Below are positions 2,970 to 28,175 of a stretch of DNA of 32,656 bases, piece after piece. The DNA is from Armatimonadota bacterium (lineage in GTDB: Bacteria; Sysuimicrobiota; Sysuimicrobiia; Sysuimicrobiales; Kaftiobacteriaceae): the NCBI GenBank assembly GCA_016193565.1, contig JACPRY010000012.1:1-32656 (forward strand), given 5' to 3'. Made by a program: the position numbers and the translations under genes. How positions within the stretch are numbered: the first letter of the stretch is position 1; each line of letters opens with the position of its first letter. Below the pieces are notes generated by a model. It had not been told where the DNA came from. It did not search any database and saw only the letters and a program-made list of their open reading frames with translations.

Positions 2970-3887
2970 TCAGGTCTCGCGCGTCCGGAACCACTCGACC
3001 GTCCGAGCCAATCCCTGGGCGAGGGGGATCGTGGCAGTCCAGCCCAGCCATTCCTTCGCGCGCGAGGCGCTGAGGGCGATGCGATAGACGTCGCCCGGCC
3101 GCGGGGGCGCGTAGGTGGCCGTCCCCCGGAATCCACAGAGATCCGCAAGCTGCCCGAAGAGATCGTTCACCGTCGTCTCGACGCCCGTCGCGATATTTGC
3201 GATGCGTCCCGAAGGCGCGCCCAGCGCACGAACGTTGGCCGAGGCGACATCTCCCACGTAGACGAAATCCCGCGTCTGCTTCCCGTCTCCGAAGATGGTC
3301 GGCGTGCGCCCGCTGAGCATCGTCTGGGTGAAGATGGCGACGACACCGGCCTCGCCATGCGGATCCTGACGCGGCCCGTAGACATTCGCATAGCGCAGCA
3401 CCGCCCACTCGAGACCGCGCCCGAAGTATCTGAGGTAGATCTCACCCGCGAGCTTGCTGATCCCATAGGGGGAGATGGGACGCTCGGGGTGACTCTCGCC
3501 GACGGGAAGACGCTCGGGTTCTCCGTAGATGGCGCCGCCCGTCGAGGCGAAGATCAGCCGCGTCGCGCCAAACTCGACGCACAGCGCCAGCAGGTTGAGC
3601 GTGCCGAGGACGTTGACCTCAGCATCGAGGCGCGGGTGACTGACTGAGACGGAGACGGACGTCTGGGCGGCCTGGTGGTTGACCACATCGGGGCGTTCCC
3701 GCTCGAACACGGACCGAAGGTCGGAAGCGCGGATGTCCTCCTGATAGAACCTGGCCTTGGGGTGGACGAACTCGCGGCGGCCGCTGCTGAGGTTGTCGAC
3801 GACGATGACCTCGTGTCCCGCCGCGAGATAGGCGTCGACGACGTGAGAGCCGATGAATCCGGCGCCGCCGGTGACCAGAATCTTCAT
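2970..3887 (-). CDS. NAD-dependent epimerase/dehydratase (UDP-glucose 4-epimerase-like)
   Basis: MKILVTGGAGFIGSH Rossmann motif, YxxxK (PYGISKLAGE). Start taken at the internal ATG of track ORF 2970..3932. Confidence 0.8.
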   Translation of the reverse strand: MKILVTGGAGFIGSHVVDAYLAAGHEVIVVDNLSSGRREFVHPKARFYQEDIRASDLRSVFERERPDVVNHQAAQTSVSVSVSHPRLDAEVNVLGTLNLLALCVEFGATRLIFASTGGAIYGEPERLPVGESHPERPISPYGISKLAGEIYLRYFGRGLEWAVLRYANVYGPRQDPHGEAGVVAIFTQTMLSGRTPTIFGDGKQTRDFVYVGDVASANVRALGAPSGRIANIATGVETTVNDLFGQLADLCGFRGTATYAPPRPGDVYRIALSASRAKEWLGWTATIPLAQGLARTVEWFRTRET

Positions 3888-4448: not shown

Positions 4449-5477
4449 ATGCTCGATCTGATTGCCCGATTCCCGCAAATGTGCGTGGAGGCGTGGGACC
4501 TGGGCTGGGCCACCCGGGTGCCTACCACGCGGCCGAACGCCATCGTTGCGATGGGGATGGGGGGTTCGGGGATCGGCGGCGACCTGCTGAAATCCGTGCT
4601 GTTCGACGACGACGCGCCACCGGTGGCGTCGGTCAAAGAATACCGGGCGCCGTCGTTTGCGGGTCGCGGCGCGCTCGCCTTCGCCTGCAGCTATTCCGGC
4701 AACACCGAGGAAACGCTGGCCGCGTACCAGGAGGCCCGCCGCAGGGGTGCGGCCTGTGTCGCGGTCACGTCGGGCGGGGAGTTGCTCCGTCTGGCGAACG
4801 ACCGCGGGGACCCGGCCGTGGTCGTGCCGTCCGGCCTGCCGCCGCGCGCGGCGCTCCCGTACCTGTTCATCCCAATGCTGGCCGTGCTCGGACGCGCCGG
4901 TATTATCGGATCGTACGCGGAAGGGTTGCGTGAAGCGGTCCAGGTGCTGGGCGACATCGTTGCGTCCGAATCCCCCGACCGGACGCCGGGAACCACCCGC
5001 GCCGTCGCGGCGCGCCTAGTGGGCCGCATCCCCGTGATCTACAGCGCGGCGCCGTTCCTGGAGCCGGCGGCGGAGCGCTGGAAGGATCAGTTCAACGAGA
5101 ACAGCAAAACGTTTGCGGTGTGGAACACCTTTCCCGAATTGAACCATAACGAGACGGTGGGGTGGGGACTGGACGACGCCCTCGCCCGCATCATTCACGT
5201 CATCATCCTGCGTGATGCCGCCGAGGACGCGCGACTGAGCGCGCGCGTGACCATCACGAAGGACCTGGCATTCCGTCGCGCAGGCGGCCTGGACGAGGTG
5301 CGCGCGCAGGGACGGGGGAAACTGGCCAGGCTGCTGTCCACGGTCCTCATCGGGGATTTTGTGAGCTGGTACCTCGCGACGCTGCGCGGAGTGGATCCAA
5401 CGCCTGTGGAGGTCATCGAGGAACTAAAGAGAAGACTGGCCGGGAGCGCGGGAGCGCGGAAGCCCGGGAGCGCGTAG
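4449..5477 (+). CDS. bifunctional phosphoglucose/phosphomannose isomerase (SIS domain, archaeal-type PGI/PMI)
   Basis: MLDLIARFPQMCVEAWDLGW... matches the PGI/PMI family N-terminal region, with two SIS-like halves. The in-frame upstream sequence encodes ...EHDPSG directly before the ATG after a TAG at 4383 (see findings). Confidence 0.8.
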   Translation: MLDLIARFPQMCVEAWDLGWATRVPTTRPNAIVAMGMGGSGIGGDLLKSVLFDDDAPPVASVKEYRAPSFAGRGALAFACSYSGNTEETLAAYQEARRRGAACVAVTSGGELLRLANDRGDPAVVVPSGLPPRAALPYLFIPMLAVLGRAGIIGSYAEGLREAVQVLGDIVASESPDRTPGTTRAVAARLVGRIPVIYSAAPFLEPAAERWKDQFNENSKTFAVWNTFPELNHNETVGWGLDDALARIIHVIILRDAAEDARLSARVTITKDLAFRRAGGLDEVRAQGRGKLARLLSTVLIGDFVSWYLATLRGVDPTPVEVIEELKRRLAGSAGARKPGSA

Positions 5478-6591: not shown

Positions 6592-6596
6592 CTAAC

Positions 6597-6668
6597 GACA
6601 ACGCGAAGACGCGACAACGCGACAACGCGAACCGAGTTGTCCGGTTGTCCCGTTGTCGCGTTGTCCAG
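6597..6668. repeat. palindromic tandem-octamer element: (GACAACGC)x4-5 followed by its inverse (GTTGTCNC)x4
   Basis: Read directly in the sequence. It fills the entire gap between the convergent stop codons at 6589-6591 and 6669-6671. Could fold into a roughly 30-bp imperfect hairpin and act as a bidirectional terminator. Confidence 0.7.
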
Positions 6669-7538
6669 TTACCGTGTTTCTTTCGTCAGGTCGGCCAGGG
6701 GTTGTAGCAGCTTCGTAAATTCCAGCGGGAAGATAAACTTCGTGCTGGCGCCCGCGCCCAGGACTTTGAGCGCCTCGAGGTACTGCAGCGTGAGCGTTTT
6801 GCCGTCGATGTTCTTGGCGACCGCGAAGATCTTGTCGAGGGCGAGCGAGAAGCCCTCGGCGCGCAAGATCGCGGCCTGACGGGCGCCCTCAGCCTCCAGG
6901 ATCGCGGCCTGCTTCGCGCCTTCCGCCACGGTCACCGCCGCCTCGCGCTTTCCGAGCGCCTCTGTCACGACGGCGCGCCGGCTGCGCTCGGCGGACATCT
7001 GCCGGGTCATCGCTTCCTGCACCTCGCGCGGGGGCAGGATCTCGCGGATCTCGACGGTGGTGACCTTGACGCCCCACCGTTCGGTGACCTCGTCCATTTT
7101 CGCCCGCAGGACCTGGTTGATCTGCTCTCGCTTGGCCAGCACGTCGTCCAGGCTAATATCGCCGACCACCGCGCGCAGCGTCGTCGTGGCAATCCCTCTT
7201 GCGGAGCCCGCAAAATCCACCACCTGGATGACAGAAAACTCGGGATTGAAGACTTTGAAATAGATCAGGAAATCGATATTGATCGGCGCATTGTCCTTCG
7301 TGATGCACGTTTGGGAAGGGATCTCCAGGAAGAACTCACGCAGGTCCACCCAGACCGCTTTGTCGATGACCGGCCACAGGAACACGAGTCCGGGCCCCTT
7401 CTTGCCGATCGACTTCCCCAAACGGAACACGACGAGTCGCTGATACTCGCGCACGATCTTGACCGCCGACGAGAGGATGAAGATGCCGACGATGACGGCG
7501 GCGATGAGAAAGGTCAGCTGGGTCAGAAACGAAGGCAT
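6669..7538 (-). CDS. SPFH/band-7 (stomatin/prohibitin-like) membrane protein
   Basis: N-terminal TM helix followed by an SPFH core (KIVREYQRLVVFRLGK..., ...VEIREILPP...), then an Ala/Glu-rich coiled-coil tail. SD GGAGGTG upstream. Confidence 0.85.
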   Translation of the reverse strand: MPSFLTQLTFLIAAVIVGIFILSSAVKIVREYQRLVVFRLGKSIGKKGPGLVFLWPVIDKAVWVDLREFFLEIPSQTCITKDNAPINIDFLIYFKVFNPEFSVIQVVDFAGSARGIATTTLRAVVGDISLDDVLAKREQINQVLRAKMDEVTERWGVKVTTVEIREILPPREVQEAMTRQMSAERSRRAVVTEALGKREAAVTVAEGAKQAAILEAEGARQAAILRAEGFSLALDKIFAVAKNIDGKTLTLQYLEALKVLGAGASTKFIFPLEFTKLLQPLADLTKETR

Positions 7539-7619: not shown

Positions 7620-8987
7620 TCACCCGGAGGCCTGCTGCAAGGCAGCGAGGTCGATGCGGCGCTGGACGAAGTTCGTGTAGACTTCACCCCGGCGGAAGAA
7701 GGCGTTGTCAAGCACCATCAGATGGAAGGAGATGGTCGTCGGCACGCCGGCGATCTCGAACTCCTGGAGCGCGCGGCGCATCCGCGCGATCGCTTCCGTC
7801 CGCGTCGTTCCCCACGCGATGAGTTTCGCCAGCAGTGAGTCGTAGTGGGGCGGGATCGCGTACCCCGCATACGCATGGGTGTCGACACGGATGCCCGGAC
7901 CGCCCGGCGGGATGAACTGCGTGAGCCGGCCGGGCCCCGGCCGGAAGTCGTGCCGCGGATCTTCGGCGTTGATGCGGCACTCGATCGCATGCCCGCGGAA
8001 CTCGACCTCGCCCTGGTTGACCCTGAGCCGCTCGCCCGCCGCGGTCTCAATCTGCGCCTTCACGATGTCGAGCCCCGTGGTCATCTCCGTGATCGGGTGC
8101 TCGACCTGGATCCGCGTGTTCATCTCCATGAAGTAGAAGTGGCCGTCGCGGTCCACGAGGAACTCCACCGTGCCCGCGCCGGTGTAGTTGATGGAGTGGG
8201 CGGCCTTGACTGCTGCTTTCCCGAGCGCCCCGATGAACCGGTCGCGTACCCCCGGCGGCGGGGCTTCTTCCAGCAGTTTCTGATGGCGGCGCTGGATGGA
8301 GCAATCCCGCGCGCCGAGGTGAATGGTGTTGCCGTGCTTGTCGGCGAGGATCTGGACCTCGATGTGGCGCGGTTCCTCGACGTACTTCTCGATGTAGATC
8401 TCGTTGTTCCCGAACGCGGCCTCCGCCTCCGCCTGCGCGGTCTGGATGGCGCGGCGCAGATCCTCCCGCGTGTGGACGAGCCGCATCCCTCTCCCGCCGC
8501 CCCCTGCCGACGCCTTGACGATGAGCGGGAAGCCGATGTGGCGGGAGATCTCGAGCGCCTCGTTCTCCCCGCGCACCGGGCCTTCGCTGCCCGGAATGAC
8601 CGGCACGCCGGCCTCGCGCATCTGCTCGCGCGCCTGCGATTTGTTGCCCATCGCCGCGATCGCCTGCGGCGAGGGACCGACGAACGTAATCTTCACGTCC
8701 TGGCAAATCTCGGAGAAGTGCGGGTTCTCGGACAGGAACCCGTAGCCGGGATGGATCGCGTCGACGCCAAGCAGCTCGGCCGTGCTCATGATGTTGGGGA
8801 TGTTGAGGTAGGAGTCGGCCGGCGGGGGCGGGCCGATGCAGAACGCTTCATCGGCCATCCGCACATGGAGCGACTGGCGGTCGGCCTCCGAGTAGACGGC
8901 CACGGTGCGAATGCCGAGCTCGCGGCATGCGCGGATCACACGAACCGCGATTTCGCCCCGATTCGCGATCAACAGTTTTCTAAACAT
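7620..8987 (-). CDS. accC: acetyl-CoA carboxylase biotin carboxylase subunit
   Basis: [26 protein letters not shown]..., ATP-grasp domain, 455 aa, strongly conserved. No SD before the ATG. Confidence 0.95.
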
Positions 8988-8995
8988 GGGACGGA

Positions 8996-9049
8996 TCTAT
9001 TGAATCTGTTGAATCTATTGAATCAACGGGTCCAATAGATTCAACAGAT
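8996..9049. repeat. AT-rich palindrome of 9-mer repeats: (TCTNTTGAA)x3 + inverted (TCAAYAGAT)x2
   Basis: Occupies the accB-accC intergenic gap, directly abutting the accC start codon. Much lower GC than the surroundings. Confidence 0.7.
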
Positions 9050-9555
9050 TACCTGTCAGTGACGGTGGGATCGATGAGGAAGAGAGGTTGTCCGAACTCA
9101 ACAGGCGCGGCGTTTTCGACGAGCACCCTGACGACGCGGCCGCGCATCTCGCTCTGAATCTCGTTGAACAGTTTCATCGCTTCGATAATGCACACCGTCT
9201 GGCCGGGCTCCACGACGTCGCCCTCCGACACGAACGGAGGCGCGTCGGGGTTCGGCGCGCGGAAGAAGGTCCCAACCATCGGTGCTGAGATGGGCGTGAG
9301 GTGGTCGACGGCGGCGGCAGGAACCGGCGCAGTCGGCTGCGGGGCCGGCACCGTCATGTGCAGCGTCTGTGTGGGCGCTTCTGTCCCTGGATTCCCCGCC
9401 GTCGCCGTGGCACGCAAGGCGCCCGCCACCTTCTTCACCGAGACCTTGAGCGTGGGCGACTCCACTTCGAGCTCGGCGATGTCGTCCGATTCGCTGAGGA
9501 GCCGGATCACCGCTCGGATCTGGTCGAGGTCAAATTTCTGATCGCTCACATGCAT
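9049..9555 (-). CDS. accB: acetyl-CoA carboxylase biotin carboxyl carrier protein
   Basis: Biotinyl-lysine motif EAMKLFNEI, Pro/Ala linker, C-terminal lipoyl-like fold. A GTG start 6 nt downstream (M-SDQKF...) is better spaced from the GAGGAG SD. Confidence 0.9.
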   Translation of the reverse strand: MHVSDQKFDLDQIRAVIRLLSESDDIAELEVESPTLKVSVKKVAGALRATATAGNPGTEAPTQTLHMTVPAPQPTAPVPAAAVDHLTPISAPMVGTFFRAPNPDAPPFVSEGDVVEPGQTVCIIEAMKLFNEIQSEMRGRVVRVLVENAAPVEFGQPLFLIDPTVTDR

Positions 9556-9563
9556 CTCCTCGA

Positions 9564-10541
9564 TTAGATCTTCGCCGTCTCCACAGCCCCCAGTGTCCTG
9601 AACTTGGCGTAGCGGCGCTCCAGCAGCGCCTCCACCGGCGTCTCTCGGAGGGCAGGGAGGTGGCGCTGCAGCGCCGCGCGGACCGCTCCCACGGCGGCAT
9701 CAGGATCGCGGTGCGCGCCCCCGAACGGCTCGGGGAGAATCTCGTCCACGATCTCAAGCGCCTGCAGATCTTTCGCCGTGAGTCGCAGTGCCTCGGCTGC
9801 CTGCGCGGCCTTTGATGCGTCGTGCCACAGGATGGCCGCGCAGCCCTCCGGGGAGATCACGGTGTAAATGGCATACTGCAGCATGAGGGTGAGATCCCCC
9901 ACGGCGATCGCGAGCGCGCCCCCGCTGCCTCCCTCGCCCGTGATGACGACGATCACCGGCGTGCGAAGACGGCTCATCTCCTCGATGTTGCGCGCAATCG
10001 CCTCGGCCTGGCCCCGTTCCTCGGCTTCATCCCCAGGGAATGCCCCGGGCGTATCCACGAAGGCGATGACCGGGTAGTGGAACTTCTCGCCCACCCGCAT
10101 GGCCCGCAGGGCTTTGCGGTACCCCTCCGGGTAGGGCATGCCGAAGTTCCTCGCGATGTTCTCCTTCGTGTCCTTTCCTTTATTATGGCCGATCACGACG
10201 ACCGGCTGGCCGTCGAAGCGCGCGAGTGCCGCCAGCATCGCCGGGTCGTCTCGGAAGAGCCGGTCGCCGTGGAGCTCAATGACGTCGGTGAACAGCGACG
10301 CGACCAGATCGAGAAGCCTCGGGCGCTGGGGGTGCCGGGCCAGCTGCACGACGTGCCAGGGCGTCGGATTCGTGTAGATCTTCCTGCGGACGTCTTCGGC
10401 ACGGGCGTCGAGCGTGGCGATCTCCCCGGCGAGATCGATCGATTGCTCTCGCGAGAGCCGTCGGAGCCGTTCGATCTCCGCCTCGAGGTCTCCGAGCTGC
10501 CGGTCGAGGTCCGAGGACGGGCCGGGTGTGGACGTGATCAT
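9564..10541 (-). CDS. accA: acetyl-CoA carboxylase carboxyltransferase subunit alpha
   Basis: Track ORF 9564..10880 trimmed to [15 protein letters not shown]... The ATG overlaps the accD stop (ATGA). Conserved VIGHNKGKDTKE / FGMP.PEGYRKALR motifs. Confidence 0.9.
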   Translation of the reverse strand: MITSTPGPSSDLDRQLGDLEAEIERLRRLSREQSIDLAGEIATLDARAEDVRRKIYTNPTPWHVVQLARHPQRPRLLDLVASLFTDVIELHGDRLFRDDPAMLAALARFDGQPVVVIGHNKGKDTKENIARNFGMPYPEGYRKALRAMRVGEKFHYPVIAFVDTPGAFPGDEAEERGQAEAIARNIEEMSRLRTPVIVVITGEGGSGGALAIAVGDLTLMLQYAIYTVISPEGCAAILWHDASKAAQAAEALRLTAKDLQALEIVDEILPEPFGGAHRDPDAAVGAVRAALQRHLPALRETPVEALLERRYAKFRTLGAVETAKI

Positions 10542-11461
10542 CAGCCCTCCGCCGCGGATCCGCCGGAGCGGGACTCTGCGACTTGTGGAGTCTCCGTGCG
10601 AGCGGGCGCCTCGACAGACACCGCTTCGACTTTCGGCGCGCCGAAGAAACTCAACAGGCGGGCGACGGTCGAGCGCATCTCGGATCGCGGCACCACCATG
10701 TCGAGGAGGCCCTTCTTCAGGCAGAACTCCGCGGTCTGAAAATCGTCTGGCAGCTTGCGGCGAATTGTTTGTTCGATCACCCGCCGGCCGGCGAACCCGA
10801 TGAGCGCGCCCGGCTCGGCCAGAACCACATCGCCCAGGAACGCGAAGCTCGCGGTGACGCCCCCGGTTGTCGGATCGCACATCACGGAGAGATAGGGGAG
10901 TCCGGCATCGTGCAGCCGGCCGATCGCCGCGCTGGTCTTCGCCAGCTGCATCAGCGACAGCGCGCCCTCCTGCATGCGTGCGCCGCCCGACGCGGAGAAG
11001 ATGACCAGGGGCAACCGCCGGTCGCGCGCCTGTTCTGCTGCCCGGGCCACCTTCTCGCCGACCGCCGATCCCATCGACCCGCCCATGAAGTGAAAGTCGA
11101 GCGCGCCGATGACCGTGCGATACCCTTCGATCGTGCCGTCGCCGGTGATGACGGCCTCCGGCCGGCCGGTCTTCTGCCTGGCTTCGTTGAGTTTCTGCGG
11201 GTAGCCCTCGAACTTGAGCGGATCGGCCGAGGTCAGGTCGGCGTCGAACTCAGCGAAACTATCCTCATCGAGCGTGATCTCGAGACGCTCGATCGCGGGC
11301 AGCCGGTGGTGATAGGCGCACTTGGGGCAGACTTTGAGGTTGCGCTCGAGCTCTTTGCGGTAAATGAGGTTGGTGCAGCGCGGACACTTCGCCCACAATC
11401 CCGCGGGCATCTCGCGCCGCTGCAGCGACCTGTATTTGGGGCGCCGGAGCCAGTTCAACAC
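10541..11461 (-). CDS. accD: acetyl-CoA carboxylase carboxyltransferase subunit beta
   Basis: Zn-finger CPRC...CPKC plus carboxyltransferase domain. Start placed at the GTG giving [12 protein letters not shown] (typical AccD N-terminus), with GGAGTGG SD. The longer track ORF runs through the repeat array with AT-ending codons and is rejected. Confidence 0.85.
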
Positions 11462-11509
11462 AGCGTGCGCACCACTCCGAAGAGGGGAGATGGGTGTTAC
11501 GTCTGTTCG

Positions 11510-11515
11510 ATTATA
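11510..11515 (-). promoter_or_regulatory. perfect TATAAT -10 hexamer (minus strand), about 40 nt upstream of the accD start
   Basis: Reverse complement of ATTATA at 11510-11515. Flanks the heptamer array on its left side. Confidence 0.45.
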
Positions 11516-11531
11516 ACGTAGAAATGGCCTG

Positions 11532-11559
11532 CCGTTACCGTTCCCCGTTCCCGGTTCCC
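11532..11559. repeat. tandem heptamer array (CGTTCCC-like x4; GGGAACN on the other strand)
   Basis: ccgttac/cgttccc/cgttccc/ggttccc. Sits centrally between the divergent accD and htrA genes, each side flanked by a perfect TATAAT. Confidence 0.75.
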
Positions 11560-11572
11560 AGGTCGCGTAGTC

Positions 11573-11578
11573 TATAAT
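11573..11578 (+). promoter_or_regulatory. perfect TATAAT -10 hexamer for htrA
   Basis: 13 nt after the last heptamer. AAGGAGG SD and ATG follow 27 nt downstream. Confidence 0.5.
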
Positions 11579-11604
11579 GAAGTGCACTCAAGGAGGTTTC
11601 ACCC

Positions 11605-12732
11605 ATGAATGCACGCGCCACTCCCGGCGCTATCCTGCTCGTGCTCATTGCCGTCGCCGTCATTGGAGGCGCGCTCGGCAGTTCGGTCCTGCCGCGCGTG
11701 CCGTTCCTCTCCGCGCTGTCCCAGTCCGCACCGTCGGCGGCGTCACCGGCACCTCCGTCCGCGGCCGCACCGAGCGCACCCACGCAGACCACGCCGCGCG
11801 TCGTCGAGCGTGAGGAATCGGTCGTCATCCGCGCCGCGGATCGGGTCCGGCCGGCTGTGGTCAACATCGATACGGTCGCGCAGGTGCAGACGGTCTTCGG
11901 CATCTTCCCACAGGAAGGCGCGGGCTCCGGTGTGATCGTCAGCCCCGACGGCTACATTCTGACGAATAATCATGTGGTCGAGACCGCCCAGCAAATCAAG
12001 GTCACCCTGCTGTCGGGGAAGACCCTCCCGGCGCGGGTCATCGGGACCGACCGGTTCTCCGATCTCGCAGTGGTGAAAGTAGAGATGTCCGGGCTGCCGG
12101 CCGCCACGCTCGGCCGTTCCAGCGCGCTGCGGGTGGGGCAGATGGCGATCGCGATCGGGAACCCGTTCGGTCTCGGGCACACGGTGACGGTGGGGGTCAT
12201 CAGCGCGCTGAACCGCAATATCCGCGTGCCAAACCTCATCATCGAGAACCTGGTTCAGACCGACGCCGCGATCAACCCCGGAAACAGCGGCGGCGCGCTG
12301 GTGGACAGCAGAGGCGAGGTCATCGGCATCAACACCGCGATCGTGCGGGACGCGCAGGGCATCGGTTTCGCCATCCCCATCGACACGGCGCGCGCGATCA
12401 TGGACCAGCTGATCCGGCAGCAGCGGGTCGTGCGTCCCTACGTCGGCGTGGTGTGGGGCGGCGATGTCGATGCGAACATCGCGCGACAATACAACCTGCC
12501 CGTCGACCACGGCGTCATCGTCCGCGACGTCGATCAGAACGGGCCGGCCGCCGCGGCAGGGATCCGGCCCGAAGACATCATCATCTCGCTCGACCGCGCG
12601 CCGGTCGCCAACTGGAACGACTTCATCCGCGCGCTCTTCAACAAGCGCCCCGGCGATGCGGTTCGCATCGAGGTCGTGCGCAACGGAATCCGCAGAACGT
12701 TCACGGTGAGACTCACTGAGCGCACCCAATAA
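11605..12732 (+). CDS. htrA: HtrA/DegP-family serine protease with PDZ domain (S1C)
   Basis: Signal/TM N-terminus, Pro/Ala-rich linker, catalytic triad context (TNNHVV, D, GNSGGAL), C-terminal PDZ. Confidence 0.9.
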   Translation: MNARATPGAILLVLIAVAVIGGALGSSVLPRVPFLSALSQSAPSAASPAPPSAAAPSAPTQTTPRVVEREESVVIRAADRVRPAVVNIDTVAQVQTVFGIFPQEGAGSGVIVSPDGYILTNNHVVETAQQIKVTLLSGKTLPARVIGTDRFSDLAVVKVEMSGLPAATLGRSSALRVGQMAIAIGNPFGLGHTVTVGVISALNRNIRVPNLIIENLVQTDAAINPGNSGGALVDSRGEVIGINTAIVRDAQGIGFAIPIDTARAIMDQLIRQQRVVRPYVGVVWGGDVDANIARQYNLPVDHGVIVRDVDQNGPAAAAGIRPEDIIISLDRAPVANWNDFIRALFNKRPGDAVRIEVVRNGIRRTFTVRLTERTQ

Positions 12733-12735
12733 CGC

Positions 12736-12766
12736 GTTGAAGGTTGAATGTTGAAGGTTGAAGGTT
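12736..12766. repeat. tandem heptamer array (GTTGAAG/GTTGAAT x4)
   Basis: Starts 3 nt after the htrA stop and overlaps the argS start codon (ATG 12748). Confidence 0.7.
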
Positions 12767-14523
12767 ACACATTCGATCGAGCAAAGCGCGAGGCTGTGGA
12801 GGCGGTCCAGGCCGCGCTCGGCGAGCCCGCTGAACTGACCACCGCACTGCCTCCCGCCGAAGTCGACGCCGATCTCGCCATTCCGTGCTTCCCGCTCGCC
12901 GCACAGCGTCGCAAGTCGCCGCCTGAGATCGCCGGCGAGCTGGCCCGATCCGTGCGGCCCGGTCCGCTGCTGGCCGGTGCGCAGGCCGCCGGCGGCTATC
13001 TCAACTTCACGCTGGCACGCCCCGCCTTTGCCGCAGGCGTGATGGCCGATCTCATCCGCGGCGGCGACCGCTACGGCACCAGCGAGGTCGGGGCCGGGCG
13101 CACGGTCGTCATCGATTACTCGGCGCCCAATGTGGCGCGACAGATGTCCGTGGGGCACCTGCGCTCGACGATCATCGGCGCCGCGCTGGTCAACCTGCAC
13201 CGTCACACCGGGTACCGGCCGGTTGGGGACAACCACCTCGGGGACTGGGGAACGCAGTTCGGCACGCTGCTGTACGCGTACGCGCACTGGCTGGACCGGG
13301 AGGCGTACGAGCGGGATCCCATCGCAGAACTGCTGCGGTTATACGTCATGTTTGACGAGGAGGCGCGAAAGGATCCGGCGCTCCGGGAACGAGCGCGCGA
13401 ATGGTCGTTGAAACTGGAGCGCGGCGACCCGGAGGCCCGGACGCTGTGGCAGGAGTTCGTCCGCCACAGCCTGGTGGAGTTCCAGAAGACCTACGACCTG
13501 CTCGAGGTACGGTTCGACCACACGTTGGGCGAAAGCTTCTACGAGGACAAGATGGAGGAAGTGATCTCACAGGCCCGGCAGAACGGGGTGGCCACCACCG
13601 ACGGCGGGGCAGTGATCATCCGTTTGGACGACGCCGGCATCACGACACCACTCATCTTGCAACGCAGCGATGGGGCGACGCTCTATGCGACGCGAGATCT
13701 GGCCACCGCCGTCTACCGCATCCGAACCTTCCGACCGGCAAAGATTCTGTACGTCGTCGGATCAGACCAGCGTCTGCACTTCCGTCAGCTGTTCGAGGCC
13801 TTGAAGAAGCTCGGCCACGGTGACGTGGAGTACGTGCACGTGGACTTCGGGCTGGTCCGGCTGCCCGAGGGGCGCATGAGCACACGGCGCGGACGCGTCG
13901 TGTTTCTCCAGGAGGTGCTCGAGGAAGCGATCGATCGGGCGCGCGCGCTCGTCGACGAGAAGAACCCCGAACTGCCGGAGGCGGAGCGCCGCGAGGTCGC
14001 CCGCATCGTAGGCGTCGGCGCGATCAAGTACGCCGATCTCTCGCAGAACCGGGTGAAGAACATCGTCTTCGATTGGGACCGCATGCTGGCGCTGGACGGC
14101 GACAGCGCCCCGTACCTGCAGTACACGTACGTGCGGGCGCGGGGCATCATCCGGAAGGGCGGGGACGTTGCGCTCGACGTCCCGTTCGACGGCCGGGCCG
14201 CGGCGTCAGCGCAGGAGTGGGCCCTGATCAAACACCTCGCGCGGTTCCCTGACGCCGTCCATGAGGCGACCCGTGCGTACTACCCGCATGTCGTGGCCAA
14301 CCATCTCTTCCAGCTCGCCCAGCTCTTCCACGCCTTCTACCAGGAGATCCCGGTGCTGCAGGCCGAGGACAACGGTCTTCGCTGGAGCCGCCAGCAGCTG
14401 GTCTGGGGCGTAGCCACCGTCATGCGCACCGGCCTCGGCCTCCTGGGCATTCGCGTCCCGGAGCGCATGTATTCCCGGTTCCCGGTTCCCGGAATCGGTC
14501 ATGGAGCAAAATGCCGGGTATAA
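12748..14523 (+). CDS. argS: arginine--tRNA ligase
   Basis: Class I aaRS with ArgRS add-1 N-domain, HIGH-region variant SAPNVARQMSVGHLRS, DALR anticodon-binding domain. Canonical C-terminus ...ERM is followed by a 17-aa tail translated from the heptamer array. Confidence 0.9.
   Translation: MLKVEGYTFDRAKREAVEAVQAALGEPAELTTALPPAEVDADLAIPCFPLAAQRRKSPPEIAGELARSVRPGPLLAGAQAAGGYLNFTLARPAFAAGVMADLIRGGDRYGTSEVGAGRTVVIDYSAPNVARQMSVGHLRSTIIGAALVNLHRHTGYRPVGDNHLGDWGTQFGTLLYAYAHWLDREAYERDPIAELLRLYVMFDEEARKDPALRERAREWSLKLERGDPEARTLWQEFVRHSLVEFQKTYDLLEVRFDHTLGESFYEDKMEEVISQARQNGVATTDGGAVIIRLDDAGITTPLILQRSDGATLYATRDLATAVYRIRTFRPAKILYVVGSDQRLHFRQLFEALKKLGHGDVEYVHVDFGLVRLPEGRMSTRRGRVVFLQEVLEEAIDRARALVDEKNPELPEAERREVARIVGVGAIKYADLSQNRVKNIVFDWDRMLALDGDSAPYLQYTYVRARGIIRKGGDVALDVPFDGRAAASAQEWALIKHLARFPDAVHEATRAYYPHVVANHLFQLAQLFHAFYQEIPVLQAEDNGLRWSRQQLVWGVATVMRTGLGLLGIRVPERMYSRFPVPGIGHGAKCRV
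14472..14492. repeat. tandem heptamer array (TTCCCGG x3; CCGGGAA on the other strand)
   Basis: Inside the last 17 codons of argS. Confidence 0.75.
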
Positions 14524-19478: not shown

Positions 19479-19506
19479 GGGAACGGGGAACGGCGAACGG
19501 GGAACG
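19479..19506. repeat. tandem heptamer array (GGGAACG x4, one GCGAACG)
   Basis: Begins 6 nt after the M23 stop. Confidence 0.75.
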
Positions 19507-19538
19507 GTACAAGCCTACCCTGGCCGGAGTGACTGTGC

Positions 19539-19865: not shown

Positions 19866-20483
19866 ATGAACGACCTTCAAGGTCGGATTGAGGTCATCGT
19901 CGGCAGTATGTTCAGCGGGAAAAGCGAAGAGCTCATTCGGCGCGTGCGCCGCGCCCAGATTGCTCGCCTGCGGGTTCAGGTATTCAAGCCGGCGATCGAC
20001 AGCCGGTCCGGCCGCCAGCAGATCGCCTCCCATAACGGCGCGCGCATTGAAGCCATTCCCATCGCCCACAGCCGGGAGCTCTCGGAACACCTTGACCCCG
20101 ACGCCACCGTGGTGGCGATCGATGAGGTGCAGTTTCTCGACGACGGCATCGTCGGGATCGCGCAGCACCTTGCCGATCGCGGGATTCGCGTGATCGCCGC
20201 TGGCCTCGACATGGATTTCCGCGGCGAGCCGTTTGGCCCGGTGCCGCAGCTGCTGGCGCAGGCAGAGGCGGTCGACAAACTCCAGGCGATCTGCATGGTT
20301 TGCGGCGTGCCGGCCAGCCGGACGCAGCGGATCATCAACGGCCAGCCCGCCCACTATACCGATCCCGTAATCTTCGTTGGCGCTCAAGAAGTGTATGAAG
20401 CACGATGTCGGGAGCATCACGTGGTTCCGGGAAAGCCATCGACCGGGAACTGGGAACGGGGAACGGGGAACCGTCAGAGATGA
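19866..20483 (+). CDS. tdk: thymidine kinase
   Basis: P-loop [11 protein letters not shown], Zn-ribbon CMVCG...CREHH. The last 20 codons are translated from the heptamer array. The stop overlaps the next ATG (ATGA). Confidence 0.9.
20445..20472. repeat. tandem heptamer array (GGGAACN x4) inside the tdk 3' end, with an inverted partner TTCCCGG at 20488-20494
   Basis: gggaact/gggaacg/gggaacg/gggaacc. Four G3+ tracts with 3-4 nt loops. Confidence 0.75.
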
Positions 20484-21385
20484 AATATTCCCGGCCAACA
20501 GAGCGCTTACTTATCGGGGGCCAAGCCGTCATCGAAGGGGTCATGATGCGCTCGCCCCGGTGGACGTCGACCGCCGTCCGGCGTCCGACCGGCGAGGTCG
20601 TGACCGCCACCGACCGCGTCGATTCGCTGCTGCTGCGCCATCGGTGGCTGCGGGCGCCGATTGTGCGCGGGGCGATCACGCTGTACGAAGCGCTGGTGAT
20701 CGGCGTGCGCGCGCTGCTGTTCTCGGCGCGCGAAGCGTTGGGGGAAGAGCAGGAACAGTCGCCGGCCGCCATCAGCGTCAGTGTCGCGCTCGGGCTCGCG
20801 CTGGCGATCGGCCTGTTCTTCGTCCTGCCCGCCGCCATGATCAGGCTGCTCGACCAGTATTTCGCCACGGTCTATACGTTGAACATCGCCGAGGGCGCGG
20901 TGCGGGTGTCGATTCTGATCGGCTACATCGCGTTGATCGGACGGCTCAATCACATTCGACGGGTGTTTGCGTATCACGGGGCCGAGCACAAGGCCGTCAA
21001 TGCCTATGAAGGAGGCGCGACGCTCGAGGTCGGGCACGTGCGCCGGTTCAGCCGGTTTCACCCGCGCTGCGGTACGAGCTTCCTGCTCATCGTGATGATC
21101 GTGGCGATCATCGTCTTCTCATTCCTGGGTCGGCCGGGATTGCTGCTACGCATCACAGAACGGGTGCTGCTTATTCCGTTTGTGGCCGGCATCAGTTATG
21201 AGATCATTCGCGCTGGGGCACGCTACCGCTGGTTCCGTCCCCTGGTCGTGCCGGGGATCTGGCTCCAGCGGTTGACCACCCGCGAACCGGATGACATGCA
21301 GCTGGGCGTGGCGATTCACGCCCTCCAAGAGGTCCTTGACCGCGAACGCAATCTGCGACAGGCTGGTGAGGAGGCGGCGGTATAA
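20480..21385 (+). CDS. DUF1385-family membrane protein (YqhQ-like; prfA-associated)
   Basis: [26 protein letters not shown]... [12 protein letters not shown] motif plus TM helices. Start taken at the internal ATG of track ORF 20405. Confidence 0.7.
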
Positions 21386-21396
21386 TAAGCTCTGTC

Positions 21397-22479: not shown

Positions 22480-22481
22480 GA

Positions 22482-23426
22482 CCCAATCCCATCACGATAC
22501 GCGAAGCCTATCTGTACGGTTGTGAGCACCTCATCGCTTCGGGCGTACCGGAGCCGGCCATCGAGGCCGAGGTCCTGCTGAGGCACGTCCTGGGCTATGA
22601 TCGGGCGGCGCTGTATACTCGCTGGGACTCTCCGATTGATCCTCCCACGGCCGGGCGCTACCAGCGCCTTTTGGAGATCCGGAGCACGGGGCGGCCCGTT
22701 CCCTACATCATCGGTACGCGGGAGTTTATGAGCCTCCCGTTCGCAGTGGACGAACGGGTGATGATCCCGAGACCCGAAACAGAGATTCTGGTGGAATATC
22801 TGGTGAAGAAGTTCTCAACTACGGAAACGAGGAAACGAGGAAACGAGGGAACGAGTCAAGGCGACGAACGACCAACGACCAACGACGAACATCAGTTGGT
22901 GCTGGTTGATGTCGGGACGGGCAGCGGCTGCATCGCGGTGAGCCTCGCACACTACCTGCCGCAAGCCCGCGTCTATGCGACCGACATCTCGGCCGCGGCG
23001 CTCGAGATCGCCGCGCGAAACGCTCAGCATCACAACGTGGCAGATCGGGTGGTCCTGCTTGAGGGCGATCTCCTGTCCCCCCTTCCGCACCACCTGGACG
23101 GACAGGTGCAGGCCGTAGCCAGTAACCCGCCCTATGTCCCGGTATCACAGGCGCTGGACCTGGCGAGGGAAATTCGCGATTTCGAGCCTGCGGAAGCCGT
23201 GTTTTCGCCGGGCGAAGGAACGGTGATGCACGGCAGGCTGATCGAAGAAGCGCCTCGCTGGCTCTGCGCCGGAGGGATGCTCGCGATGGAGATCGCTGCG
23301 GGCCAGGCTGAGCCTGTGCGCAATCGAGTGGCTCAGGACAACCGGTATGATCGTGTTTGCTCCCTCTCTGATCTTGCTGGAATTGAGCGCGTGGTGGTCG
23401 CATGGCGACGACACGCGACAGGGTAG
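22482..23426 (+). CDS. prmC: release-factor glutamine N5-methyltransferase (PrmC/HemK); start codon uncertain
   Basis: The frame is open from immediately after the prfA stop and encodes the PrmC N-domain (...IREAYLYGCEHL...VLLRHVLGYDRAALY...), then VLVDVGTGSGCIAV and NPPY. There is no ATG/GTG/TTG before the track's internal TTG at 22671. Contains a 20-codon in-frame repeat insertion. Confidence 0.75.
   Translation, partial: PNPITIREAYLYGCEHLIASGVPEPAIEAEVLLRHVLGYDRAALYTRWDSPIDPPTAGRYQRLLEIRSTGRPVPYIIGTREFMSLPFAVDERVMIPRPETEILVEYLVKKFSTTETRKRGNEGTSQGDERPTTNDEHQLVLVDVGTGSGCIAVSLAHYLPQARVYATDISAAALEIAARNAQHHNVADRVVLLEGDLLSPLPHHLDGQVQAVASNPPYVPVSQALDLAREIRDFEPAEAVFSPGEGTVMHGRLIEEAPRWLCAGGMLAMEIAAGQAEPVRNRVAQDNRYDRVCSLSDLAGIERVVVAWRRHATG
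22823..22890. repeat. compound array inside prmC: (GGAAACGA)x4 + GTCAAGGC + (GACNAAC)x4
   Basis: Encodes TETRKRGNEGTSQGDERPTTNDEH between the PrmC N-domain and the methyltransferase GTG motif. Length keeps the reading frame. Confidence 0.75.
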
Positions 23427-26532: not shown

Positions 26533-26540
26533 CATTCGCG

Positions 26541-26572
26541 CGTTCCCCCGTTCCCGCGTTCCTTCGTTCCCG
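26541..26572. repeat. tandem octamer array (CGTTCCCN x4)
   Basis: cgttcccc/cgttcccg/cgttcctt/cgttcccg. Begins 9 nt after the remnant's stop. Confidence 0.75.
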
Positions 26573-26581
26573 CTGTTGTGT

Positions 26582-26638: not shown

Positions 26639-27367
26639 ATGGAACGAGTGAGTCTGGAAGCGAAGCGCCGCGATGGCACGGGAACGAGCAAGGTGCGCAA
26701 GCTCCGCCTGCAGGGGCTCGTCCCGGCGGTCGTGTACGGCCGTGGCCGCGAGCCGGTGCCCGTGGCCGTCGACGGGAAGTCGCTGCGCGCATCGCTGCAC
26801 ACGCATGCCGGCCTGAACGTCCTCATCGACCTGTCCATCGCCGACGGCAGTCGCTCGACGGAAACCGTGATGGTCAGGGAAGTGCAGCGCGGGATGTTCA
26901 GGCGCGAGATCATTCACGTGGATTTCCACACGATCGACCTGACGGAGACACTCGAAGCGCACGTGCGGTTGGTCTTCACCGGCCAGGCGAAGGGCGTCGT
27001 CGACGACGGGGGCGTGTTGGAGATCCACCTCCGCGAAGTCGTTGTCGAGTGTCTGCCGGCACAGATTCCCGAGTCGATTGAGATCGACATCTCAGCGCTG
27101 GGCGTGGGGGACTCGCTGCACGCCAGCGATATCAAGATGCCCGCTGAGGTGACGATGGTCACGTCGGCCGAGGAGGCGATCGCCACAGTCGTCATGCCCA
27201 AGGAGATCGAAGAGGTGGCGCCTGCGGCTGCGGCGGTGCCTGAAGCGGCGGCAGAAGCCGCGGCCCCCGAGGCAGCGGCGCCGGCAGAGGGCAAGCCGGC
27301 CGAGAAGGCTGGTGAGCCTGAGAAGCCCGAGAAACCTGAGAGACCCGAGAAGAAGGAGAAGGGGTAG
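26639..27367 (+). CDS. rplY: 50S ribosomal protein L25 / general stress protein Ctc
   Basis: MERVSLEAKRRDGTGTSKVRKLR...VVYG... L25/Ctc fold. Ala/Pro/Glu/Lys-rich C-terminal tail (PEKPEKPERPEKKEKG). Confidence 0.9.
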   Translation: MERVSLEAKRRDGTGTSKVRKLRLQGLVPAVVYGRGREPVPVAVDGKSLRASLHTHAGLNVLIDLSIADGSRSTETVMVREVQRGMFRREIIHVDFHTIDLTETLEAHVRLVFTGQAKGVVDDGGVLEIHLREVVVECLPAQIPESIEIDISALGVGDSLHASDIKMPAEVTMVTSAEEAIATVVMPKEIEEVAPAAAAVPEAAAEAAAPEAAAPAEGKPAEKAGEPEKPEKPERPEKKEKG

Positions 27368-27518: not shown

Positions 27519-28109
27519 ATGAAACTCATCGTCGGGATGGGCAACCCAGGGCGCCGGTACCGGGGAACGCGCCACAACGTGGGCTGGGAGGTGCTCGAGT
27601 GTCTGGCCCGCCGCCACGACGTGACGATCGATGACGACACGGGCTGGGCTGAGGTCGGACGGGGAACGATCGGTCCCCACCGCGTCGTGCTGGCGCGGCC
27701 GGTGACCTACGTGAACGCGAGCGGCATGGCGGTCCAGGATCTCAAGCGCCGCCACCGCGTACAGGTTGAGGACATCTTCCTGATCGTGGACGATCTCGAT
27801 CTGCCCCTCGGCCGGATGCGGCTGCGGCCGAAGGGAAGCGCCGGCGGGCACAACGGACTGAGATCCGTGATCGAGGCGTTGGGCAGCGCCGAATTTCCGC
27901 GGCTGCGCATCGGGATCGGACGGCCACCGGCGGGGGTCGATGCCGCGGACCACGTCCTCACACGGTTCACCGACGAGGAGCGGCAGGGGCTGGAGGCCGC
28001 CCTGGTCCGCGCGGCGGAAGCCCTCGAGGTCGCGATTACTGAGGGCCTCGATGTCGCGATGAACCGGTTTAACGCGAAAACGAACCTCGGAAACGAGGAA
28101 ACAAGGTAA
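27519..28109 (+). CDS. pth: peptidyl-tRNA hydrolase
   Basis: MKLIVGMGNPG..YRGTRHNVG... The last about 8 codons and the stop lie inside the repeat palindrome. Confidence 0.9.
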   Translation: MKLIVGMGNPGRRYRGTRHNVGWEVLECLARRHDVTIDDDTGWAEVGRGTIGPHRVVLARPVTYVNASGMAVQDLKRRHRVQVEDIFLIVDDLDLPLGRMRLRPKGSAGGHNGLRSVIEALGSAEFPRLRIGIGRPPAGVDAADHVLTRFTDEERQGLEAALVRAAEALEVAITEGLDVAMNRFNAKTNLGNEETR

Positions 28110-28167
28110 CGAGGAAACGAGGCATGGCAGTTACCGGTTTCCTAGTTTCCTCGTTTCCTGGTTTCCG
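28089..28167. repeat. palindromic octamer array: (GGAAACGA-like)x4, 15-nt spacer, (NGTTTCCT)x4
   Basis: ggaaacga/ggaaacaa/ggtaacga/ggaaacga ... ggtttcct/agtttcct/cgtttcct/ggtttccg. Spans the pth stop. Confidence 0.75.
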
Positions 28168-28175
28168 CCGTTGAG

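Follow-up and report, generated by a model that had tools for sequence, protein, structure and literature searches.

A heptamer array between predicted divergent accD and htrA promoters is probably one of many fast-changing repeat blocks in an Armatimonadetes-like genome

Of known repeats, those closest in kind to the array analyzed here are the G-rich, four-unit heptamers found between genes in Xanthomonas and Nostoc, with the unit GGGAATC in the former and GGGGA(C/T)T in the latter (Rehm et al., 2015; PMC4692102). Other intergenic heptamers include the STRR heptanucleotides of heterocystous cyanobacteria and the TAACTGA heptamers of Beggiatoaceae, cyanobacteria and Bacteroidetes (MacGregor, 2015; PMC4679880). 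The present array lies between the divergent genes accD and htrA in a window of 32,656 nucleotides (the whole stretch of DNA analyzed, contig JACPRY010000012.1) from an uncultured, Armatimonadetes-like lineage. A sequence-only reading had proposed that it controls both genes. We conclude from comparison with relatives that the two promoters are probably real and that the array is one of a genome-wide population of fast-changing blocks of ~30 bp, not a dedicated control site.

The accD gene (10541..11461, minus strand; NCBIfam TIGR00515, 395 bits against a cutoff of 317) is the first of an accD-accA-accB-accC operon. As had been claimed, this operon is complete; accA (~9564-10580), accB (9049-9555) and accC (7620-8987) also score above their model cutoffs. 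The true start of accD is a GTG/TTG codon at ~11461, matching the gene call on the near-identical contig L001, and not the 11587 of the mechanical open reading frame. On the other side, htrA (11605..12732, plus strand) encodes a Do/HtrA-family serine protease with one PDZ domain (NCBIfam TIGR02037, Pfam Trypsin_2 and PDZ), and its matches to Do/HtrA family models (E ~1e-96; 5.6e-96 for TIGR02037) are below the equivalog cutoffs. The predicted promoter of the accD operon has the -10 box ATTATA at 11510-11515 (TATAAT on the minus strand), 48 nt from the accD start codon. The predicted htrA promoter has TATAAT at 11573-11578 (plus strand), 26 nt before the ATG at 11605, which implies a 5' UTR of ~20 nt; a Shine-Dalgarno sequence, AAGGAGG (11590-11596, plus strand), stands 8 nt before that ATG. 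Both boxes are perfect and, like the htrA translation signals, were found where they had been placed, with gaps to the array of 16 nt on the left and 13 nt on the right.

The array itself (11532-11560, plus strand), identified by sequence, TRF and motif count, had been described as four GTTCCCN units in the register CCGTTAC, CGTTCCC, CGTTCCC, GGTTCCC (11532-11559). Its position holds and three units contain a perfect GTTCCC (GTTCCCC at 11540, GTTCCCG at 11547 and GTTCCCA at 11554), but the first, GTTACC at 11534, is degenerate. The G-rich strand (GGGAACN) is antisense to htrA, and its units read GGGAACC, GGGAACG and GGGGAAC, the fourth being GGTAAC. TRF assigns a period of 7, with either 3.1 copies at 93% matches or 4.3 copies at 82% matches, and the array ends 45 nt before the htrA ATG. 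In the window, GTTCCCNGTTCCC with at most two mismatches occurs 18 times against 3.5 expected, a count reached in 0 of 100 shuffles. A degenerate repeat unit is a better reading of GTTACC than part of a GCAGTTAC loop motif. Such a conserved motif beside right arms, which might be the recognition site of a repeat-making enzyme, was rejected as a candidate: 5 matches were found against 3.05 expected, and 19 of 100 shuffles had at least 5. A structured RNA or riboswitch in the spacer was rejected as well, with no Rfam match at gathering threshold in the whole window and a fold no better than shuffles.

It is credible that the accD-htrA spacer holds two back-to-back promoters of the sigma-70 type, predicted on conserved, perfect -10 boxes. 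The window has 7 perfect TATAAT hexamers where 0.8 are expected (0 of 100 shuffles reached 7), and each of the seven precedes a gene, either in a spacer or at a gene end. Thirteen accD-linked orthologous loci were compared (L002-L007, L129-L134 and L136); P0007, an orthologue 86% identical, was outside this DNA comparison. Both -10 boxes and the divergent synteny are kept in L002-L007, L129-L131, L133 and L134, whose HtrA proteins are 61-97% identical, and GATTATA, which includes the accD-side box, is invariant in a seven-way alignment of orthologous spacers. The htrA-side TATAAT is present in 11 of the 13 loci; L132 and L136 lack a perfect one and keep the accD-side or a nearby box. Because both boxes are kept in all loci other than these two, the divergent promoters of the earlier reading are credible as predictions.

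Neither promoter has a recognizable TTGACA, as had been noted: the best -35 candidate agrees at 1/6 positions for htrA and at 3/6 for accD, and a consensus scan of 11000-12000 found no two-hexamer promoter. The array covers the -35 positions of both, also in agreement with the earlier account. Promoters dominated by the -10 box, lacking a -35 element and often leaderless, have been described for Actinobacteria and Deinococcus-Thermus. The likeness extends to the (near-)perfect -10, the missing TTGACA and a frequent TGn extension, and also to leaderless genes such as argS and prfA of relatives, with an ATG 6-10 nt after TATAAT, whereas the architecture here is inferred from conservation and enrichment only. 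Among 42 perfect TATAAT sites, a TTGACA match of at least 4/6 was found at only 8, and at 20 there was no array within 60 nt. Promoters lacking a -35 element thus appear to be the normal style of this lineage, with or without arrays.

Conservation of the array is of a different order from that of the boxes. In three independent assemblies with 96.2% DNA identity to the window (L002, L127 and L128), it is absent and ACATATGG replaces 26 nt, while both -10 boxes, the Shine-Dalgarno sequence and the flanks are kept. L003-L007, L130, L131, L133 and L134 have arrays of other units at the orthologous site (TGTTCCC/TGTGATCCCC, GGTCCCN, CTTCCCN, GTTATCCC, GTTTCCC and TGTTCGC). Seven different units occur at this one site, and the sequence unit is not conserved. 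The gap between array and htrA -10 varies from 4 to 14 nt among relatives, with no fixed phase, and the same range of 4-14 nt is found across 16 promoter-adjacent arrays. The distance to the accD -10 is anywhere between 7 nt and over 150 nt, so the two promoters do not share the array. What does persist is orientation: in the window, L003, L004/L129, L005-L007, L130, L131, L133 and L134, an array adjoins the htrA -10 with its C-rich strand as htrA sense. This persistence could reflect selection on some property of the array rather than neutrality.

Similar arrays are abundant. About 15 arrays like this one occur in the window, with a period of 7-9, about four copies, lengths of 27-38 bp and many units; TRF reports 19 arrays (0.58 per kb), those of period 7-9 having 3.0-4.5 copies. 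In L004-L007 the density is 0.28-0.57 per kb, and most arrays are 27-40 bp long with about four copies of many unrelated units. Almost every array in the window is in a spacer or overlaps the end of a gene; several are paired as inverted hairpins, and one array site is inside prmC. Their neighbors are unrelated housekeeping genes (htrA, argS, an SLH/BsuPI gene, rpmE, tdk, the L25 gene, pth, an H+-PPase gene and accB/accC). A regulon reading of the GTTCCC-type arrays was rejected, as the genes beside them (htrA, the SLH/BsuPI gene, rpmE, tdk/DUF1385 and L25) are unrelated.

The individual blocks illustrate both their hairpins and their differences among relatives. Between the convergent ugpC and band-7 genes, an inverted pair, (CGACAACG)x4.5/(GTTGTCCN)x4.4 (6596..6670), folds as RNA with -42.5 kcal/mol (z -5.6); in L004 and L005 this spacer has other units and again a hairpin. 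The block between accB and accC, (ATCTATTGA)x3.3 with an inverted partner (8995..9050; -23.6 kcal/mol, z -5.7), is wholly absent from L002. Directly 3' of the htrA stop, (GTTGAAG)x4.4 (12736..12766, plus strand) contains the argS ATG at 12748; the corresponding L002 spacer has no array, and has a TATAAT and a leaderless argS ATG. At 14472..14492 (plus strand), (TTCCCGG)x3 forms the right arm of a hairpin that is completed in L001 by a left arm and loop of 46 bp; the L001 structure reaches -43.6 kcal/mol (z -6.3). After the stop of a LysM/M23 gene and 31 nt upstream of the rpmE TATAAT, (GGGAACG)x4.1 (19479..19507, plus strand) is absent from the sister contig L209. The array between tdk and the DUF1385 gene, (GGGAACN)x3.9 (20445..20471, plus strand), is the only one in the window with a canonical 4xG3 motif. 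In prmC, (GGAAACGA)x4.1 and (CGACCAA)x4.1 (22823..22890, plus strand) make an in-frame insertion of 22 codons. Upstream of the L25 gene, 8 nt from its TATAAT, (CGTTCCCN)x3.9 (26535..26573, plus strand) has 4.9 copies in L209. Finally, the inverted pair (GGAAACGA)x4.2/(GTTTCCTN)x3.8 (28089..28166; -39.2 kcal/mol, z -5.0) overlaps the stop codon of pth, with its end 9 nt short of the TATAAT that precedes the H+-pyrophosphatase gene.

Most features of these blocks are those of the Xanthomonas and Nostoc class: tandem heptamers that include a G3 tract (GGGAACN in the present case), found genome-wide with a bias to spacers and a preference for about four units; a G-rich strand that is antisense within 50 bp upstream of an open reading frame, or that, as the sense strand, overlaps a stop or follows one by no more than 50 bp; inverted pairs; neighbors of no particular functional class; and wide variation in the length and sequence of the same spacer between close relatives. 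The differences are nonetheless considerable. Many units coexist here (GGGAAC, GGAAAC, CGACAAC, GTTGAAG, ATCTATTGA, CGACCAA and others), about half of the arrays lack a G3 tract, and the period is 8 or 9 as often as 7. The accD-htrA array has only three G3 tracts, not the four of that class, and lies between divergent genes, a position under-represented there (PMC4692102); the host is an Armatimonadetes-like MAG of ~65% GC. The STRR and TAACTGA heptamers are likewise intergenic and tandem, with 2-6 copies per set, often just before start codons and beside functionally mixed genes, but one or a few units dominate each genome where the present set is diverse. For them a site for a post-transcriptional regulator was proposed (PMC4679880), whereas the accD-htrA array is upstream of a -10 box and should therefore not be in htrA or accD mRNA. 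Among the matches listed in a contig scan, Nostocales and other cyanobacteria often carry exact (GGGAACN)3GGGAAC arrays, and the spread of these arrays covers at least cyanobacteria, Acidobacteriaceae, Gemmatimonadota, Rhodanobacter/Dyella and others. The lineage studied here is a dense example of heptamer and octamer repeats previously described mainly in Xanthomonas and cyanobacteria, richer in units, with many hairpin pairs and, in prmC, a clear case of insertion into coding sequence.

Turnover of the arrays, judged by the aligned contigs, is site by site and not wholesale. The sister lineage has no arrays at accB/accC, htrA/argS, the argS 3' end, LysM/rpmE and prmC, and the window differs from L001, to which it is 99.8% identical, by the 46-bp hairpin arm. 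Wholesale loss in the sister lineage, which would have implied a trans-acting maintenance factor, was rejected because L209 keeps the L25 and pth arrays.

The blocks probably originate when DNA is copied with local slippage and fold-back (template switching). They would accumulate in unconstrained sequence, from a stop codon to the next -10 or between divergent -10 boxes, with a tolerant protein loop as an occasional site. The accD-htrA array would then occupy the unconstrained zone upstream of both promoters. It would not be a sequence-specific operator, and accD and htrA would not be co-regulated through it; any effect on transcription would be non-specific and structural. The array widens the distance separating the two -10 boxes from 39 to 57 bp, and would in this way alter how two RNA polymerases compete for the spacer. 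That the promoters function, and that the array has no effect, is judged here from comparative sequence only. For promoter reading in this uncultured lineage, four-unit spacer arrays would count as genome-wide background. Two regularities are not obviously predicted by a neutral process. One is a consistent polarity, with a purine/G-rich arm after stop codons and a pyrimidine/C-rich arm before the next gene; the arrays at 19479, 22823 and 28089 and in L001 have the G-rich sense strand directly after stop codons. The other is the narrow clustering of copy numbers at about four.

One possibility is that the array is functional non-B-DNA, with the template strand of htrA forming a G-quadruplex or i-motif, or that it is the remaining arm of a hairpin that served as insulator or terminator, and that it tunes htrA output. 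Such tuning was proposed for the GGGAATC/GGGGAYT repeats of Xanthomonas and Nostoc, and the geometry here is as they described it, G-rich antisense, within 50 bp upstream and about four units (Rehm et al., 2015; PMC4692102). A canonical 4xG3 motif does occur on the htrA-antisense strand in L003, L004, L005 and L007, and the orthologous site of L007 carries both arms of an inverted pair (-60.3 kcal/mol, z -10.2). However, the window array has only its three G3 tracts plus a GG, with no G3+N1-7 x4 motif on either strand of 11516-11572, and L006, L130 and L131 likewise have only three G3 tracts and lack the canonical motif. Nor does the array have a hairpin partner, and its fold is ordinary against shuffles (z -0.4 and +0.5). 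The array persists beside the htrA -10 in most relatives, but its absence from L002, L127 and L128, whose promoters are otherwise intact, and the arrays that reach about four units with no G3 tract also weigh against this explanation, which we consider unlikely. The G-quadruplex was rejected as a general reason for four units, as the window has 4 canonical motifs, one of them in an array and none in the accD-htrA spacer.

A broader form of the argument is that the blocks are a lineage-wide class of four-unit modules of ~30 bp, selected for a structural property and not neutral debris. We regard this as unlikely. On this view, pairs would be stable hairpins terminating or insulating transcription right up against the next -10, and solitary C-rich arms would be an upstream promoter module where -35 elements are missing. 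The C-rich array by the htrA -10, found across 61-100% HtrA identity, would become a conserved, sequence-independent promoter component. If the arrays proved to have a structural role, the natural array-plus and array-minus alleles (the window against L002, L127, L128 and L209) would be ready test pairs.

The hmw repeats of Haemophilus are phase-varying promoter heptamers. Promoter heptamer repeats are described as drivers of phase variation in that genus (PMC12721329), and a similar contingency role is conceivable here, in which gain or loss of units shifts the -10 spacing and switches the accD/htrA balance within a population. Near-identical genomes do differ, by the 46-bp indel, by the 3.9 and 4.9 L25 units and by presence or absence at six sites. 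The accD-htrA array, however, is identical in the window and L001, four units are a short tract for high-frequency slippage, and across the genome the genes that flank arrays are essential housekeeping genes rather than surface or contingency genes. Rehm et al. likewise decided against phase variation for their repeats (PMC4692102), and we find it improbable here.

The original proposal, that the array replaces the -35 or binds an activator such as a response regulator to control the accD operon and htrA jointly, derives its appeal from its cover of both -35 positions, where nothing resembling TTGACA is found. Operators made of direct repeats that overlap the -35 do exist: pho boxes are of this kind, and CssR boxes stand in multi-copy arrangement at the B. 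subtilis htrA/htrB promoters. The canonical CssR box is TTTTCACA (PMC6749698). The likeness lies in short direct repeats that overlap the -35 region in front of an htrA gene. However, the CssR unit is conserved across its regulon and across species, and the dedicated response regulator that binds it is encoded with its kinase, whereas here the unit is not conserved, the array is dispensable in relatives ~96% identical that keep both boxes, and no two-component system was seen among annotated window genes (5.4-32.5 kb) or in L004-L006. A 7-bp period (7-9 in the family) is also unlike the 10-11 bp helical spacing of OmpR/PhoB-type sites. The variable distances to both -10 boxes, the same or similar arrays (~0.5 per kb) beside unrelated genes and inside prmC, and a lineage in which the -35 is missing at many sites with no array nearby all speak against the proposal, which now looks very improbable. 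The tempting story of an operator shared by fatty-acid synthesis and a periplasmic protease is set aside as very probably wrong.

Lastly, GGAAC is the canonical -35 core of ECF sigma factors and degP/htrA is sigma-E dependent in E. coli, but the idea that the GGGAAC units are -35 motifs for an envelope-stress-type ECF factor, which classically drives htrA/degP, is hardly credible, because GGGAAC is on the strand pointing away from htrA, the sole candidate on the accD strand (GGTAAC-N15-CGT) is one base short of the usual spacing and unconserved in L003-L007, and perfect TATAAT boxes suit the housekeeping sigma.

To return to the preferred reading of background repeat blocks, prmC offers a hint of how they originate. 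Its CGACCAA array is an inverted quasi-copy of the adjacent native TTGGTGCTGGTTG, which may be a clue to the origin of the arrays.

What the sequence-only reading placed in the spacer between accD and htrA was borne out in the sequence. The −10 of accD lies on the minus strand (ATTATA at 11510-11515, TATAAT when read in its own direction) and that of htrA on the plus strand (TATAAT, 11573-11578), followed by the Shine-Dalgarno sequence AAGGAGG (11590-11596) and the htrA ATG (11605). The gaps separating these boxes from the array, 16 nt on the left and 13 nt on the right, also agreed. The array itself, described as four GTTCCCN units at 11532-11559, consists of three perfect GTTCCC units and a degenerate first unit (GTTACC, GTTCCCC, GTTCCCG and GTTCCCA, 11534-11560), and TRF assigned it a period of 7, with 3.1 copies at 93% matches or 4.3 copies at 82%. 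With up to two mismatches allowed, GTTCCCNGTTCCC matched 18 times in the window compared to 3.5 expected, and 0 of 100 shuffles scored as high. The gene identities were upheld by NCBIfam search: accD, accA, accB and accC each exceeded their own cutoff, and the plus-strand gene downstream of the array encodes a Do/HtrA protease. The true accD start is at about 11461, and the spacer is therefore 143 nt. GC content of the window is about 65%, and no Rfam family matched anywhere in it. At NCBI, the identical HtrA protein is assigned to a MAG of an 'Armatimonadetes bacterium'.

The proposal of divergent promoters is supported by conserved −10 boxes and by TATAAT enrichment. Perfect TATAAT occurs seven times in the window (11515, 11573, 14519, 19539, 21381, 26582 and 28176) against 0.8 expected, a roughly ninefold excess (0 of 100 shuffles reached seven), and all seven are located in spacers or gene ends, each aimed at a downstream gene. 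The divergent gene order is kept in the related contigs L002-L007, with HtrA 71-97% identical, and in metagenome loci L129-L134 and L136. GATTATA on the accD side is unchanged across the seven-way alignment, and perfect TATAAT precedes htrA in all accD/htrA loci compared, with the exceptions of L132 and L136. This conservation is good footprint-type evidence for both predicted promoters.

Nearly all seven TATAAT sites of the window are without a −35 element. When 42 perfect TATAAT sites in loci of the clade were surveyed for TTGACA at 16-18 nt, only eight had a match of at least 4/6, and the mean best score was 2.74 versus 2.26 at random positions. No array lies within 60 nt upstream in 20 of the 42, and several carry a TGn extension. 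In relatives, the ATG of argS and prfA is found 6-10 nt after TATAAT and these genes are therefore leaderless. It is thus reasonable to think that −10-dominated promoters are the norm of this lineage, in which case no −35 substitute would be needed. The prfA ATG of the window (21397) is 10 nt after TATAAT (21381-21386), which suggests a leaderless mRNA; this hexamer falls within the final codons of the DUF1385 gene.

The interpretation that we favor, and consider probably correct from sequence comparison, is that of two back-to-back promoters, resting on conservation and enrichment, each of which would be driven by its own −10 box. The array is one member of a set of genome-wide repeat blocks; it would fill the unconstrained upstream zone between both promoters, and its effect would probably be non-specific, through spacing or structure only. 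About 15 arrays were detected by TRF over the whole window (period 7-9, 3.0-4.5 copies, 21-38 bp), and their units differ greatly from one another: CGGGAGCG at 5441, CGACAACG and GTTGTCCN at 6596 and 6636, ATCTATTGA at 8995, GTTGAAG at 12736, TTCCCGG at 14472, GGGAACG at 19479 and 20445, GGAAACGA at 22823 and 28089, CGACCAA at 22862, CGTTCCCN at 26535, and GTTTCCTN at 28137. Relatives have a similar density (0.47 arrays per kb in L004 and L005, 0.57 in L007, 0.28 in L006). Genes beside GTTCCC/GGGAAC-type arrays, namely htrA, an SLH/BsuPI gene, rpmE, tdk/DUF1385 and that of ribosomal protein L25, have no function in common. Arrays also have polarity: the purine/G-rich arm begins a few bases past a stop codon or overlaps it, and the pyrimidine/C-rich arm stops 4-14 nt ahead of the next gene's −10.

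Some arrays overlap coding 3' ends (5441-5474 and 28089-28109 in the window, 3798-3825 in L004), so that both the PGI/SIS-like protein and Pth have repeat-encoded C-terminal tails; Pth has 196 aa in the window and 207 aa in the related contig L209. The L25/Ctc C-terminal tail contains a period-9 repeat (AGCCCGAGA, 4.2 copies, 27315-27352) encoding PEKPEK-type low-complexity sequence. L209 shares this repeat, which is therefore regarded as a coding repeat rather than one of the spacer arrays.

The closest known kind is that of the intergenic G-rich heptamer repeats of Xanthomonas (GGGAATC) and Nostoc (GGGGAYT) (PMC4692102). Those repeats are found genome-wide with a preference for four units, have the G strand antisense upstream of ORFs or sense past stop codons, form inverted pairs, vary strongly in the same spacer among close relatives, show no functional class bias, and are under-represented between divergent genes (Rehm et al., 2015; PMC4692102). 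The arrays described here are similarly genome-wide, with the same four-unit preference, inverted pairs, G-strand orientation, strong variation among close relatives and lack of functional bias. However, many units coexist here, G3 tracts are lacking in about half of them, and periods of 8-9 are as common as 7. In addition, the accD-htrA array sits between divergent genes and has no canonical G4 motif. When one genome per species was searched for (GGGAACN)3GGGAAC, at least 119 exact loci were recovered, mostly in cyanobacteria, Acidobacteriaceae, Gemmatimonadota and Rhodanobacter/Dyella, with some in Chloroflexota, so the unit is widespread. Among the matches listed, some cyanobacteria, such as Trichormus (L014), have 8-14 consecutive matches.

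Many arrays are inverted pairs with very stable predicted hairpins. Pairs are located at 6596-6670, 8995-9050 and 28089-28166 in the window, at 3549-3644 in L007, at 4951-5006 and 11128-11199 in L004, and at 3521-3614, 7195-7328 and 17285-17369 in L005. Predicted energies were −42.5 kcal/mol (z −5.6) for 6592-6675, −39.2 kcal/mol (z −5.0) for 28085-28170, −43.6 kcal/mol (z −6.3) for 3333-3400 of L001 (a 4-kb contig from GCA_016180475.1, 99.8% identical to the window), and −60.3 kcal/mol (z −10.2) for L007 3540-3650. The paired arrays form hairpins that are long and imperfect (z −5 to −10), many of them sitting between convergent genes or in the stretch from a stop codon to the following −10; within one spacer, units differ across species and arm complementarity is kept. 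They might act as U-tract-less terminators or insulators. A functional role for the accD-htrA array as a G4, i-motif or hairpin is unlikely. Its geometry does fit the Xanthomonas/Nostoc class, and a canonical 4xG3 motif is present in four orthologues, but its own G3 tracts number only three, it lacks a partner arm and shows no fold, and G tracts are missing from half of the arrays. Our preferred reading of a generic repeat block carries three main reservations: persistence of a C-rich array beside the htrA −10 in most relatives, the polarity rule, and the narrow clustering around four copies could each reflect selection on a structural property.

Compared with a sister lineage about 96% identical (L002, L209), the window alone has arrays at accB/accC, accD/htrA, htrA/argS, the argS 3' end, LysM/rpmE and inside prmC. 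At L25 the two are one unit apart (3.9 copies in the window, 4.9 in the sister), and the pth array pair is common to the window and L209. In the htrA-argS spacer of L002, L127 and L128 (L002 4126-4160), TATAAT is followed 7 nt on by the ATG of a leaderless argS. The window (12733-12790) has (GTTGAAG)x4.4 in that place and no TATAAT, with the argS ATG (12748) inside the array behind an SD-like GAAGG, and its argS may be co-transcribed with htrA. At 14471/14472 the window lacks 46 bp found in L001 (3336-3381), comprising the argS stop codon, a (GGGAACN)x4 left arm and the loop; only the right arm, (TTCCCGG)x3, is retained, and the ArgS ORF continues for 17 more codons, to 14523. Either the hairpin arm was truly deleted, or the assembly collapsed at the inverted repeat. 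In prmC (about 22480-23426), an in-frame 22-codon insertion (22823-22890) relative to the 97%-identical L209 is composed of (GGAAACGA)x4 and (CGACCAA)x4, in a loop ahead of the GTGSG motif. The CGACCAA run amounts to a quasi-copy, in inverted orientation, of native TTGGTGCTGGTTG lying downstream. This insertion, the most telling of the cases, points to local slippage and fold-back (template-switch) copying as the source from which we infer that the arrays arise, and to their survival at a site being decided by tolerance and not by function. Array turnover is thus real, but a phase-variation repeat has only a slim chance of being the explanation, as the neighbours are housekeeping genes and the accD-htrA array is unchanged between the window and L001. 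In the window, rpmE and the DUF1385 gene are separated by tdk (19866-20483), with the GGGAAC array (20445) after it; in L209 tdk is missing and a conventional GC-rich hairpin occupies that place.

Array-less accD-htrA alleles were found in three separate Logan assemblies (L002, L127 and L128; 96.2% DNA identity to the window), which have ACATATGG where the window has its 26-nt array. Flanks are identical, and the −10 to −10 distance is 39 nt versus 57 nt in the window. In other relatives an array adjoins the htrA −10 but is built of different units: ATGTTCCC and TGTGATCCCC in L003 and L004 (7 nt away), GGTCCCN x4 in L005 (5 nt), CTTCCCN in L006 (5 nt), a full inverted pair of GGGATAAN and GTTATCCC in L007 (4 nt), GTTTCCC in L130, L133 and L134 (9 nt), and TGTTCSC in L131 (14 nt). 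The L132 and L136 spacers have no array. The array lies as little as 7 nt from the accD −10 in L003 and L004 and more than 150 nt from it in L005, L130 and L131, three loci with a conserved −35-like hexamer, TTGCCG, of their own on the accD side. Neither the sequence of the array nor its register is therefore constant, the two promoters do not share it, and the −10 boxes do not need it to persist.

The array had been proposed to be a −35 surrogate or an activator site co-controlling the acc operon and htrA. This is highly improbable, since unit, register and sharing all vary down to array-less relatives, a missing −35 is ordinary in the lineage, and similar arrays of diverse units flank unrelated genes genome-wide. 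GGGAAC as an ECF −35 motif can practically be dismissed, being on the wrong strand and not conserved. As specific candidates, a CssR/PhoB-type operator was rejected for lack of a conserved unit, fixed register and regulon logic, and an ECF promoter on its defining tests. Pairs of natural alleles with and without the array, together with the lineage-wide repeats, are a useful if unspectacular resource. In the subclade of L005 (9771-9961), L130, L131 and L133, the accD-htrA spacer is about 190-215 nt long and includes a conserved GTTTGCCGGGC, the −35-like TTGCCG for accD, and extra sequence between the promoters.
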